Shown one piece after another: positions 232 to 4,744 of a stretch of DNA of 5,696 nucleotides; position 1 is the first letter of the stretch; each line of letters starts with the position of its first letter. Origin of the DNA: a virus. Under the pieces are notes generated by a model. It was not told the DNA's origin. It saw only the letters and a list, made by a program, of their open reading frames with translations, and did no database searches. Made by a program: the position numbers and the translations under genes. The stretch covers positions 1-5,696 of the IMG/VR virus record IMGVR_UViG_3300045988_033111, one strand, 5' to 3'.

Positions 232-287
232 AGATTATCATTATTTATTATTAACTTGTTGTAGTCGTAATAGTAGGGAGTGTTGAA

Positions 288-371
288 ATGTTGAATACCA
301 TGAATTTTTATCCTTGGAACGATATTTTCTGGATTATTTTGATGTTGATACTTTTGTGGATAACTTGTTGA
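288..371 (+). CDS. Candidate 27-aa hydrophobic peptide, MLNTMNFYPWNDIFWIILMLILLWITC. It is uncertain because it overlaps the repeat array.
   Basis: ATG at 288 is preceded by GGGAG (276..280) with a 7-nt spacer. Stop TGA is at 369..371. The C-terminal 14 residues are strongly hydrophobic. It falls below the size cut-off of the ORF track. Confidence 0.25.
   Translation: MLNTMNFYPWNDIFWIILMLILLWITC
355..363 (+). promoter_or_regulatory. Perfect consensus DnaA box, TGTGGATAA (TTATCCACA on the - strand).
   Basis: Exact 9/9 match at 355..363. Near-matches are TGTGGAAAA at 448..456 (8/9) and cGTGGAAAA at 419..427 (7/9). Confidence 0.5.
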
Positions 372-392
372 ATTGTTGAAAGTGTAGCAATA

Positions 393-412
393 TGCACAAA
401 ACCATTTGTGCA
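393..412. promoter_or_regulatory. Perfect palindrome TGCACAAA-N4-TTTGTGCA, either an operator-like site or an ssDNA hairpin.
   Basis: 8-bp arms at 393..400 and 405..412 with spacer acca. It lies between the two copies of the ~50-nt repeat. Confidence 0.6.
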
Positions 413-467
413 ACTTTTCGTGGAAAACCTGTTAAAAATGTTGAAAGTGTGGAAAAATCGAATTAAA

Positions 468-1712: not shown

Positions 1713-2184
1713 TTTCCGAGAAACTGCAACAGCAAAGCCGACCGAGGCCGGGGAAACCGTGAGGCGCACATACCTCTGGGAGCGCAACGAAAAAGGCGAA
1801 AAGGTGCTGAGACTCGACCAGACCATTGACCAACAGGCAGAAATCGACAGCTATCTCGAGGAAACCAAACTTGAAAACATCATCCGACGAGCAAGCATCG
1901 ACCCGGACATTGCAGCACGTATCAAACCGGACATCGGGGGCGGCATCCAAGACTTCACCGAGGCGCCGCAGAATCTGGCCGAACTCCAGAACATCATGAT
2001 GCGAGCAGAGCAAATCTGGGACGAGGTGCCGAAAGAAATCAAGCTCAAGTTTGACAACGACGTGGACAAATTCATCGCAAGTTTTGGAACCGTCGAATGG
2101 GCCAAAAATCTGGGCATCTACCAAGAAAACCAGGTCGAAACCAAAGCAACTGAGGCAACGGAGGCAACGGAGGCCAAAGAATGA
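1690..2184 (+). CDS. VP3: Internal scaffolding protein VP3, 164 aa from ATG 1690. The ORF track starts it at TTG 1663.
   Basis: AGGAG (1675..1679) lies 10 nt before ATG 1690. The block QDFTEAPQNLAELQNIMMRAEQIWDEVPKEIKLKFDNDVDKFIA matches the conserved gokushovirus VP3 core. Stop TGA (2182..2184) overlaps the VP1 ATG as ATGA. Confidence 0.8.
   Translation: MAYRSVSNFRETATAKPTEAGETVRRTYLWERNEKGEKVLRLDQTIDQQAEIDSYLEETKLENIIRRASIDPDIAARIKPDIGGGIQDFTEAPQNLAELQNIMMRAEQIWDEVPKEIKLKFDNDVDKFIASFGTVEWAKNLGIYQENQVETKATEATEATEAKE
2149..2175 (+). repeat. 9-nt tandem repeat x3 (ACNGAGGCN) encoding TEA-TEA-TEA at the VP3 C-terminus.
   Basis: actgaggca acggaggca acggaggcc. The last unit supplies GGAGG (2169..2173), 7 nt upstream of the VP1 ATG. 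Confidence 0.85.
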
Positions 2185-3821
2185 ACAGAAACAAAGATGC
2201 AGGATTCAACCAGGTACCGCGCCTGGACATCACGCGAAGTCGATTCAAACGGCGGCAGGACGTCAAATTAACGCTAAATGCAGGACAACTTATTCCGTTC
2301 TATGTGGATGAAGTGCTCCCGGGTGACACCTTCAGTATTGACCAAGCGGCGATTATCCGCATGACGACGCCCATTTTTCCGGTCATGGATAACTGTCACA
2401 TGGACATTTATTATTTTAACGTCCCTTGCAGAATCCTATGGAAAAACTTCAAACGATTCATGGGCGAAAACAATACGGGGCCATGGACACAGACTCAGGA
2501 GTACTACATTCCGCAGGTCAGAGTAACCGGCACCGCAGAAAAACCGGCACCTTATGAGGGCAGCATCCTTGACTACATGGGTATTCCGACCAAGGTAAGC
2601 AAGGGAGAAGATACGGCATTCACTATCAACGCGCTGCCCATGAGGGCGTATGCTATGATATGGCAGGAGTGGTTCAGAGACCAAAACGTGGATAACCCGG
2701 CCATCAACAGCGATGCAGACGCGACTATAAACTACACGGACGACGAGACCAAGGGCATGGACGCGGCAAAGCCGGATTTGGAGTACATTCTCCAGAACGC
2801 GTACACAGGCGGCAGACCTCTTCCGGTCAACAAGTACCACGACTATTTCACATCGGCTTTACCGAATCCGCAGAAAGGCCCTTCAGTACAACTTCCGCTG
2901 GAAGGAAACGCTCCAATATTCGGATATTCAGACGTCAATCGAACAGAATTAAGTACCACCGGAGTGCTGCAAAAAATCGAAAACCAAACCAGACCTTTAG
3001 GCATTGTAGGATACACACCCAACCAGACAGAAATCTACTTAGGCGCAAGAATGGACAACGTAACATCGGCAACCATCAATCAGCTGAGGCAAGCATTTCA
3101 AGTACAAAAATACTACGAACAGCTAGCACGCGGCGGCTCTCGCTACCGTGAGATGGTTTACTCGCTGTTCCACACCAAAATCAGCGATAAAACGGTACAA
3201 ATCCCGGAGTATCTGGGTGGAACACGTATCACCATCAACATGAGTCAGGTCATCCAGACCAGCGGGACAACGACGGAAAGCCCGCAGGGCAACACTGCAG
3301 CAGTAAGCGTTACGCCGTACAACGGCAGTATGTTCACCAAGAGCTTTGAAGAACACGGCTTTGTTATCGGGGTGTGCTGCATCCGGCATGACCATACCTA
3401 CCAACAGGGCTTAGAGCGTATGTGGAGCCGAAAAACCAATCTGGATTTCTATTACCCGGTCTTCGCAAATCTGGGAGAGCAAGCAATTCTCAAGAAAGAA
3501 CTGTACCTCACCGGAACAGCAACGGATGAACAGGCATTCGGCTATCAAGAAGCTTGGGCTGAATACCGGATGAAACCGAACCGCATCAGCGGCAAATTCC
3601 GCAGCAACGCGACCGGGACGCTGGACAGTTGGCACTACGGAGACAACTACACGGAAACGCCGAGCTTAAGCCAGGCATGGATGAAAGAAGGAGACTCCGA
3701 AATTCAGCGGACTCTGGCAGTGGACAACGAACCGCAGTTTATCATGGACACCATCATCGACAACACCAGCGTCAGACCGATGCCCATGTACAGCATCCCG
3801 GGACTCGTTGACCATCACTAA
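2181..3821 (+). CDS. VP1: Major capsid protein VP1 (Microviridae F-type jelly-roll capsid), 546 aa.
   Basis: Full-length ORF with hallmark gokushovirus VP1 blocks: [107 protein letters not shown] and [13 protein letters not shown]. Confidence 0.95.
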
Positions 3822-3865: not shown

Positions 3866-4744
3866 ATGGGACTCTTAACAACAATAGGATTACCACTGCT
3901 CAAAATGGCAATACCGAGCATTGCAGGAGCAGCAGCAAACAAGCTCTTTGGCACAAGCGGAAGCTACGGACAGCAAGGGCAATCTAACAGTCAAAGCAGC
4001 GGTTCCAGCTGGTCCCAAGGCACAAGCGACAGCGGAAGCACAAGCAGCGGAGGCACAAACGACGCTGTAAACAAAAGCATCGCAGCACTTGCAAACCAAC
4101 TAAGCCAAGGCAGCATGGCCGGACAGCAAAAATACAATCGCAATTCCATGCTTATGCAGATGGGTTATAATACCTTGTCGGCAATCCAGCAAGGCGTATA
4201 CAATCACATCGAGCAGCAAACAGCGATGAGCTACAACAGCGCCGAAGCCGCAAAAAACAGAGCATGGCAAGAGCAGATGAGTAACACATCCTACCAAAGA
4301 GCAGTCGAGGATATGAAAAAAGCTGGCATCAACCCTATCTTGGCATACACACAGGGCGGAGCAAGCACACCGAGCGGAGCGCAGGGAACAATCGGCAGCG
4401 CAAGCATGGGCATGGCATCCAGTAGCGCGCTGGGAGCAACGGCATTACCGGGCATCAAACAAGACGGCAGCTGGAGCCAACACAGCGAAGCATGGAGTCA
4501 TGCAGAAAACGCAGCACAGAGCATCCAGCAAGCTATCATGTCGAGCAGCACAAACCCTGTCAGACTCAGAGGAGACATGGAGCGCATTGCAGAGGCAGCA
4601 GCAGAAGGCGCGACGAACCTTAGAAAGACGATGGCAAGCGCACTCGCGAGCGACGAAGCAAAAGCCAACGCAAGAAACAGTCTCGAAAACATGAGAAGGA
4701 ACGGATTCACCGGCTACATGAGCATAAATCCGAGAGGTAAATAA
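3866..4744 (+). CDS. VP2: DNA pilot / minor capsid protein VP2, 292 aa.
   Basis: A hydrophobic N-terminus is followed by an S/G/Q-rich low-complexity segment (~3950..4070). The conserved block [24 protein letters not shown] is typical of gokushovirus VP2. Stop TAA (4742..4744) overlaps the rep ATG as TAATG. Confidence 0.85.

Follow-up and report, generated by a model that had tools for sequence, protein, structure and literature searches.

The window analysed here, the whole 5,696-nucleotide (nt) stretch of the IMG/VR virus record IMGVR_UViG_3300045988_033111, is a complete circular gokushovirus genome with a unit of 5,641 nt, because its first 55 nt recur at its end. Downstream of VP4, the gene for the replication protein (Rep), its non-coding region carries an array of TGTTGAA repeats. 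These repeats are probably DnaA boxes, and the array, together with DnaA-trio-like trinucleotides and an AT-rich DNA unwinding element (DUE), probably constitutes a phage-borne copy of the basal unwinding system (BUS) of bacterial origins, which would act on the replicative form with the help of host DnaA. This suggests that these single-stranded DNA (ssDNA) phages may borrow the initiator of their host. The evidence lies in the architecture of the sequence, its conservation, the constraints on its spacing and its independence of both Rep divergence and orientation.

The first-pass annotation, made from the letters of the window, had described five exact copies of TGTTGAA and two one-off variants, arranged as three head-to-tail doublets. 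The exact copies start at 281, 289, 366, 374 and 439, all on the plus strand, and the variants at 343 (TGTTGAT) and 430 (TGTTAAA); two further one-off variants occur in the region, TGTTGTA at 257 and TGTGGAA at 448. A count on both strands of the genome revealed zero copies outside the 281-445 region. The doublets at 281/289, 366/374 and 430/439 and their spacings of 85 and 64 nt were also correct, as were an imperfect direct repeat (348-374 versus 412-438, 67%; 371-393 versus 436-458, 83%) and a duplicated GTGGA(T/A)AAC element, present as TGTGGATAA at 355-363, CGTGGAAAA at 419-427 and TGTGGAAAA at 448-456. The proposal that three doublets share one helical face is incomplete as a scheme, since the array contains about nine boxes in three clusters with an internal spacing of 8-11 nt. 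None of 20,000 dinucleotide-preserving shuffles of positions 241-470 contained five TGTTGAA copies (mean 0.24, maximum 3). When any 7-mer was allowed, 61 of 5,000 shuffles gave at least five copies; clustering within the window alone is thus significant, but not overwhelming. The decisive support for the repeat array is its conservation among relatives.

Read on the opposite strand, TGTTGAA(A/T)A becomes TT(T/A)TCAACA, a recognised variant of the DnaA box. Published origin tables use TT(T/A)TCAACA as the DnaA box for Clostridium botulinum, C. acetobutylicum, Ruminococcus albus and Campylobacter jejuni; it is also the DoriC motif for Chlamydophila and has been proposed as the DnaA-box consensus of mollicutes. 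The array includes canonical boxes as well. The element that the first-pass annotation had given as GTGGATAAC is a perfect DnaA box, TTATCCACA: the copy at 355-363 is the reverse complement of this consensus, i.e. a perfect box on the minus strand. The copy at 448-456 matches the relaxed consensus TTWTNCACA exactly, and that at 419-427 differs from it by one mismatch. In total nine boxes lie head to tail in a single orientation, in clusters at 281-297, 355-382 and 419-456, and all of them are direct repeats whose starts are 8, 9 or 11 nt apart. The trio-proximal pair (281-297, plus strand), which is the first of the doublets described above, consists of the 8-mer TGTTGAAA abutting the 9-mer TGTTGAATA. 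Cluster A (355-382, plus strand) contains TGTGGATAA at 355-363, the dinucleotide ct, TGTTGAAT at 366-373 and TGTTGAAAG at 374-382, and is followed by a degenerate TGTAGCAAT at 383-391. Cluster B (419-456, plus strand) contains CGTGGAAAA at 419-427, the dinucleotide cc, TGTTAAAAA at 430-438, TGTTGAAAG at 439-447 and TGTGGAAAA at 448-456; in most relatives it reads TGTGGAAAA cc TGTTGAAAG TGTTGAAAG TGTTGAAAA.

Across relatives, TGTTGAAAA and TGTGGA(A/T)AA forms replace each other in the same register. The first position of cluster A (A1) is occupied by TGTGGATAA, TGTGGAAAA or TGTTGAAAA depending on the lineage, the first and fourth positions of cluster B (B1 and B4) toggle between TGTGGAAAA and TGTTGAAAA forms, and ungapped swaps of TGTGGATAA or TGTGGAAAA for TGTTGAAAA occur between clades at A1, B1, B4 and the first box. 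In the clade termed the 57% clade the proximal box is TGTGGAAA. If a single protein recognised both forms as alternative sites, such in-register exchange between canonical and TGTTGAA boxes would be expected. Between clusters A and B lies a palindrome, TGCACAAA-N4-TTTGTGCA, together with a conserved TTGTGCAAC (393-414); the 57% clade has another palindrome (CGTCAAAATGACG) in this place and retains TTGTGCAAC. Pairing of box A1 (352-362) with 391-401 into a single-strand hairpin resembling the A-site was considered and rejected, as the DNA fold favours a hairpin at 393-412 and the pairing is lost in relatives in which A1 is TGTTGAAAA.

Three further elements lie directly upstream of the first box pair. 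The outermost (234-263, plus strand) is AT-rich and easily melted, contains TTATT and TTGT motifs, and represents a candidate DUE. This element has the lowest duplex stability of any 30-bp segment in the genome (nearest-neighbour free energy -29.0 compared to a genome mean of -40.7), and in 90 of 92 relatives the equivalent position ranks within the least stable 1%. Both TTATT and TTGT have been reported as single-strand motifs of E. coli DnaA (2024 review). The motif A(C/T)TTGTTG at 253-261 is invariant, with CTTGTTG unchanged in 60 distinct sequences. It is followed by five DnaA-trio-like trinucleotides, TAG TCG TAA TAG TAG (262-276, plus strand), which read 3'-GAT-5' from the boxes. In the same 60 sequences four trios keep T, A and G without exception, and the one variable trio has only A or C in its centre. 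In a B. subtilis strand-separation assay, replacement of the central A of a trio with C keeps separation, whereas G, T and U reduce it; strand-separation assays with Black Hole Quencher (BHQ) and crosslinking assays for DnaA are available (PMC8287927). The trio strand of the window runs 5'-trios-spacer-boxes-3', which is the orientation needed for oligomer formation. Trios and first box are separated by the G-rich 4-nt spacer GGAG (277-280, plus strand), whose length is constant in relatives. This GGAG could double as a ribosome-binding site for a doubtful open reading frame (ORF) at 288-371. AACTTG, which presumably resembles the phiX174 origin, was considered as a nick site for Rep and is a lead and not a claim; inversion of the cassette in two relatives (L094 and L099, see below) would move it to the other strand.

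Relatives were gathered in two ways, by similarity of the VP4 and VP1 proteins, which is unbiased with respect to the motif, and by the motif itself. The resulting set comprises 96 distinct genomes whose VP4 is 44-100% identical to that of the window. The array is located just 3' of VP4 in 75 of the 79 distinct genomes selected by protein, where the core TGTKGAW reaches 29.6 per kb in a 300-nt module compared to 0.24 elsewhere on the same strand (about 120-fold). Altogether 92 of the 96 genomes harbor the module in the form A(C/T)TTGTTG TAG NNG TAG TAG TAG, a 4-nt G-rich spacer, and (T)GT(T/G)GAAA (T/A)GTTGAA(T/A)A. Three of the remaining four (L083, L066 and L097) are contigs truncated no more than about 140 nt beyond VP4, and the fourth (L108) is a chimeric assembly of 8.8 kb, in which the microvirus genes up to the VP4 hairpin are immediately followed by tailed-phage genes for a portal, Mu-F and terminase. 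Another relative, L095, has about twice the size of a microvirus (10.9 kb) and carries TGTTGAA clusters at two places, and several relatives (e.g. L108 and L109) encode a protein with a Peptidase_M15 domain. In GenBank, the non-coding region matched 45 gut gokushovirus records at the DNA level, versus 14 that megablast found with the whole genome.

The edge of the DUE, the trios, the spacer and the three box clusters behave as one unit, a cassette spanning 253-456 on the plus strand. It shares 90-96% nucleotide identity with genomes whose VP4 is only 44-45% identical at the amino acid level, which indicates that the cassette is exchanged or conserved independently of Rep. In two genomes (L094 and L099) exactly this cassette is cleanly inverted, while the VP4-proximal hairpin, a CG/CA tract, a GC-rich element and the promoter described below are unflipped. 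The clean inversion shows that the cassette is an autonomous unit on double-stranded DNA (dsDNA), whichever strand is packaged. The clusters keep a fixed distance of 157/158 nt from the trio module, which holds even for a clade with unrelated DNA between them. A search with the pattern of the module on all viral contigs yielded at least 120 loci, nearly all on microvirus-sized contigs with a VP4 of about 20-90% identity. The few matches outside microviruses resemble canonical DnaA origins, with (TAG)n, 4 nt, TGTGGATA TGTGGATAA and more boxes. One of them, L314 (IMGVR_UViG_3300045988_157119, positions 2134-2500), belongs to a large dsDNA phage on a 140-kb contig from the same metagenome. Its intergenic region combines an AT-rich stretch, (TAG)4, GTCG, TGTTGAAA AGTTGAAAA and several TTTTCAACA boxes, and neighbours genes for RNA ligase, dCMP deaminase, gyrase/topoisomerase and ThyX. 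Judged by its sequence, this region resembles an origin of the DnaA type and shares its box dialect with the window.

The module was also compared with the definition of the BUS by Pelliciari et al. 2021. There a box has at most two mismatches to TTATCCACA or to a species-specific motif, the boxes form a tandem pair, the better box is 0-16 bp from the first trio (peak at 10-13), at least three trios follow (NAN, consensus 3'-GAT-5'), and an AT-rich element lies beyond them. In the window the 8-mer and the 4-nt spacer separate the distal 9-mer from the first trio by 12 nt, as in B. subtilis, Listeria, S. aureus, C. botulinum and C. acetobutylicum. Of the five trios at 262-276, four have a central A and the fifth a C, in the orientation required, and the AT-rich element is located at 234-263. 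The boxes of the pair, TGTTGAAA(T) and TGTTGAATA, have three mismatches each to TTATCCACA but only one each to TTTTCAACA, a motif that comes from other bacteria and may not be that of the host; it is used for some species in the same origin table, and for mollicutes. Relatives carry TGTGGAAAA at the proximal box position, with one mismatch to TTATCCACA. A chromosomal oriC locus usually lies next to dnaA/dnaN, whereas the module is found between VP4 and small phage ORFs; it would therefore work like an oriC core without being an oriC locus. As a control, a position (union) pattern was built only from seven published Firmicutes origins. Positions 268-297 of the window have two mismatches to this pattern, whereas the best of 2,000 block-shuffled genomes had at least four.

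From these features a mechanism can be proposed. After conversion of the incoming single strand to the double-stranded replicative form, host ATP-DnaA would bind to the boxes, and the downstream clusters at their fixed distance would feed or stabilise the DnaA complex. From the proximal pair, DnaA would then extend as an oligomer along the trio strand and open the AT-rich element at 234-263. With this opening, host helicase and primase might initiate or increase replicative-form replication, or single-stranded DNA might become available to the phage Rep. Host DnaA is the likely binder because the cassette is decoupled from VP4, because its repeats swap in register with canonical boxes, and because of the geometry of trios, spacer and meltable segment. 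Going further, it is conceivable, as a tentative reading, that a large gut gokushovirus lineage carries a complete and mobile host-type origin core with which the replicative form is opened by DnaA, and perhaps replicated in theta fashion, besides the rolling circle of Rep.

Several points weigh against a DnaA-dependent unwinding system. Binding of DnaA, unwinding and a role in replication are deduced from sequence alone. Both proximal boxes, with their three mismatches to TTATCCACA, would count as boxes only if TT(T/A)TCAACA is the motif of the host. In phiX174 the phage Rep nicks the origin, and DnaA is not known to be needed. Low-affinity arrays of E. coli are phased by 11 nt, whereas clusters A and B have a spacing of 8-9 nt. 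The cultured gokushoviruses Chp2, phiMH2K and SpV4 were checked, and none of them has the module, which shows that it is not essential to the subfamily. The intergenic region of Chp2 (L316, AJ270057, positions 2812-2960) contains two boxes that match the relaxed consensus exactly (TGTGCAAAA), 12 nt apart in A-tract repeats, followed by a hairpin with a 14-bp stem and the loop TCTACTTGATC on the plus strand; no trios occur in this region. Finally, the same DnaA-binding array might have a titrating or regulatory role, which is the main rival.

According to this rival, the array binds DnaA without unwinding, either as a sink for host DnaA that stalls initiation in the host, like datA and the clusters of B. 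subtilis, or by letting the level or nucleotide state of DnaA tune the strong promoter downstream at 580-608. With nine boxes per copy, a multicopy replicative form would titrate DnaA effectively, and a conserved DnaA-box cluster in T5-like phages has been judged non-replicative. An effect on the promoter may be hinted at by a 21-nt direct repeat of 86% identity, shared between the last box with its flank (448-468, TGTGGAAAAATCGAATTAAAG) and the consensus promoter's extended -10 region (598-618, TGTGGTATAATCCAATTAAAG). However, neither a sink nor regulation needs invariant T-A-G trios that tolerate only A or C in one centre, an exact 4-nt spacer with a 12-nt geometry, or the least stable duplex of the genome next to the trios, as found in 90 of 92 genomes. 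Two genomes also tolerate the inversion, although it alters where the cassette lies with respect to the promoter. We consider a purely titrating or regulatory array unlikely, although it deserves more weight than the explanations that follow.

The first-pass annotation had interpreted the repeats as iterons and named VP4 and a 58-amino-acid Cys-rich protein as possible binders. The part of this claim that describes a conserved non-coding array of protein-binding type tied to replication is supported; its assignment to a phage protein is not. A phage protein (VP4, the VP5-like protein or the Cys-rich protein) could in principle use the repeats for recognition of a rolling-circle origin, copy control or packaging. 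Tandem direct repeats near an origin are typical of Rep binding, the phage encodes a match to a DNA-binding protein family (1476-1709, see below), and a conserved hairpin resembling a Rep origin is located some 100 nt away from the array. Repeats that serve Rep should co-vary with it, but here the cassette remains 90-96% identical where VP4 is only 44-45% identical. Furthermore, the repeats interchange with perfect host DnaA boxes, the unrelated 140-kb phage has the same words plus trios, and the 58-amino-acid ORF is not conserved beside the cassette, as other genes occupy this place in L005, L092 and L109. Iterons for a phage protein are thus improbable.

Less probable still is that coding, or a structured RNA, gave rise to the repeats as a side effect. 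The 27-codon ORF at 288-371 (MLNTMNFYPWNDIFWIILMLILLWITC) was named by the first-pass annotation as a possible source of the repeats, and on examination fails to explain them. It is intact in about 57 of 92 genomes, has a GGAG 7 nt upstream of its ATG, and shows a ratio of nonsynonymous to synonymous polymorphism (pN/pS) of 0.26 in frame versus 0.83 and 1.12 in the other frames. However, the ORF spans only the gap from the first pair to cluster A, its codon position 2 is as variable as position 3, the coding signal is weak, and stop codons interrupt it in close relatives, one of them with a VP4 of 99% identity. It is absent from the 57% clade, which retains 8-12 repeats, and the distance from trios to clusters is conserved even where the sequence between them is unrelated. 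With regard to RNA, no Rfam family reached the threshold; the match to tpke11 at 172-243 (28.8 bits versus 43) lies on the CG tract. The predicted product of the ORF is hydrophobic, its frame begins inside one box and ends inside another, and it is possibly a dispensable small membrane peptide. An integration site of the dif/XerCD type, for which the presumed resemblance of TGTTAAA to part of the XerD arm of E. coli dif could be cited, or a functionless low-complexity tandem repeat, for which the simple (TGTTGAAN)n arrays common in Bacteroidota genomes could be cited, is hardly credible, given that 5,426 E. coli genomes and the at least 120 listed array matches from 185,579 species genomes yielded no integrated copy, that the 28-bp 11+6+11 architecture of two arms and a 6-bp spacer is not present, and that the phage array has a fixed, position-specific layout kept across clades.

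The array is embedded in the only long non-coding stretch of the genome (123-634), which extends from the stop of VP4 to the sigma-70 promoter. VP4 starts at 4744, runs across the circle junction and ends with its stop codon at 120-122, VP1 is located at 2181-3821 and VP2 at 3866-4744. The product of 1476-1709 matches a PHROG annotated as 'DNA binding protein' (VP5-like). A perfect sigma-70 promoter, TTGACA-17-TATAAT, is present at 580-608 ahead of the 58-codon ORF. Gokushovirus WZ-2015a from human and monkey faeces shares about 91% identity with the genome of the window.

Right after the VP4 stop lies a hairpin (129-174; arms 135-149 and 160-174, loop 150-159), in which four of nine stem pairs vary with compensation, whereas its loop word CTATCAAG (149-156) is invariant over the entire range of 44-100% VP4 identity. 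The complement of the loop, ACTTGATAG, lies on the minus strand and presumably resembles the nick core CTTGATA of phiX174 and pC194. GGTGTCA(C) precedes the hairpin and is duplicated in the 57% clade. Together, hairpin and GGTGTCA(C) form a better candidate for the rolling-circle origin of Rep than the TGTTGAA array, with the motif on the minus strand; the loop of 135-174 on both strands and AACTTGTTG are candidate nick substrates for VP4. Due to a T-run on its 3' side, the hairpin may also terminate transcription of VP4. Between the hairpin and the AT-rich element, a CG/CA tract of alternating purines and pyrimidines (192-230) is prone to form Z-DNA and is part of an imperfect palindrome (arms 185-209 and 214-238). 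It is kept in most relatives and absent from L001 and L109, and in L092 and L094 the invertible cassette is bordered at either end by GC-rich inverted sequences akin to this tract. On the other side of the array, a GC-rich element (466-541) contains the nested hairpins GACGAG...CTCGTC and GTCATGC...GCATGAC around GGCGC-ACC-GCGCC. This element is kept in close clades, with an analogous GGCGCT-AAA-GCGCC hairpin in the 57% clade, and is possibly a priming signal for the complementary strand or a terminator.

A host was sought by comparison with bacterial genomes. The non-coding region had no match in 5,426 E. coli genomes, and its only other match was a trivial 63-nt stretch of a plasmid. A scan of 185,579 species genomes for TGTTGAA triplets yielded at least 120 loci, and among the matches listed none had microvirus genes; most were 8-nt tandem repeats of Bacteroidota or coding repeats. 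The match in Ruminococcus (L192) is an isolated TGTTGAA triple without trios. The numerous intergenic Bacteroidota arrays (L115-L234) consist of (TGTTGAAN)n with variants such as CGTTGAAT and GGTTGAAG, and often continue into an inverted array, so that long hairpins are possible; they lack trios and are unconnected with the phage module. Consensus promoters, strong Shine-Dalgarno sites and the box dialect suggest a host among the Firmicutes or Mollicutes, and the TT(T/A)TCAACA dialect in particular is a clue to Clostridia or Mollicutes.

The first-pass annotation knew of no such array in Microviridae. The searchable literature agrees with this, and it holds no paper that ties Microviridae or Gokushovirinae to DnaA boxes or trios. 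What appears to be new is therefore a known origin-unwinding core in a new kind of replicon: a core known from chromosomes would be conserved in more than 100 gut gokushoviruses. If true, a major uncultured branch of the most abundant gut ssDNA phages depends on, or manipulates, the master initiator of its host. A DnaA-dependent replication step would be a first for ssDNA phages, as would a full BUS outside a chromosome, and the DnaA-trio system would extend beyond chromosomes, which according to the 2024 review has not been seen even for plasmids. The module could also explain the plasmid-like persistence of microviruses in gut Firmicutes or Mollicutes, or how they amplify. The cassette of 200 bp would offer initiation research a natural minimal unwinding system.

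Known systems share individual features with the cassette. The Rep iterons of rolling-circle replicons, i.e. circular ssDNA viruses that encode a Rep (CRESS-DNA viruses) and geminiviruses, are likewise short direct repeats near a conserved hairpin in the main intergenic region, but they co-vary with their own Rep, whereas the repeats described here are constant across 44-100% VP4 identity. Clusters that titrate or inactivate DnaA, such as datA, also place several DnaA boxes outside oriC; to our knowledge, loci of this type have neither trios nor a DUE, whereas the window has both, in conserved form. Theta origins of plasmids and phages (RK2 oriV, P1 oriR, pSC101 and F) recruit host DnaA via R-type boxes beside an AT-rich region. 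There, however, DnaA only assists a plasmid Rep bound to its own iterons, while the cassette has trios and no separate iteron set was found in it. According to the 2024 review, no interaction of DnaA with the single-stranded DUE of a plasmid has been published.

Among phages, the nearest precedent is the injection-stop (iss) region of T5-like phages, a conserved non-coding cluster of about eight DnaA boxes that was described as reminiscent of oriC (bioRxiv 10.1101/866236). As in the window, consensus boxes are mixed with variants, here TTATCAACA and TTATTAACA, and TT(T/A)TCAACA is the commonest variant. The box pairs of T5 are 3 bp apart inside inverted repeats, whereas all boxes of the window are direct repeats. 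No trios or DUE have been described for T5, and the authors judge the cluster non-replicative; the boxes of the window are coupled to both elements.

The greatest resemblance is to the BUS itself, which consists of a DnaA-box pair, DnaA-trios and an AT-rich DUE, as in incC of B. subtilis (Richardson 2016/2019; Pelliciari 2021). The trio strand of B. subtilis, oHM558, reads TAGTAGAAGTAATAGTAG GGCC TGTGGATT TGTGGATAA, and its counterpart in the window (262-297) reads TAGTCGTAATAGTAG GGAG TGTTGAAA TGTTGAATA. In published origin tables C. botulinum has (TAG)6 GGCT TGTTGATA TGTTAATAA, C. acetobutylicum has TAGTAGTAG GGAG TGTGGATT TGTTGATAA with a spacer that is also GGAG, and Ruminococcus albus has TGTTGAAAA ACC TGTTGAAAA. 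Differences concern the setting and the boxes. The module of the window resides in a 5.6-kb ssDNA rolling-circle phage and not beside a chromosomal dnaA, its cassette is mobile and invertible, both proximal boxes are of the variant type with three mismatches to TTATCCACA, and the distal clusters have an 8-9-nt spacing. Otherwise the two systems share a DUE, at least three trios of 3'-GAT-5', a 4-nt GC spacer, an 8-mer and a 9-mer in the same order and on the same strand. The 8-mer abuts the 9-mer and leaves 12 nt between distal box and trios, as in B. subtilis, Listeria, C. botulinum and C. acetobutylicum, and TGTTGA-type boxes also occur in origins of Clostridia. In both systems all boxes aim at the trios and extra box clusters lie at a fixed distance; the constant 157/158 nt of the phage cassette recalls the way in which distal boxes are helically phased in incC of B. 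subtilis.

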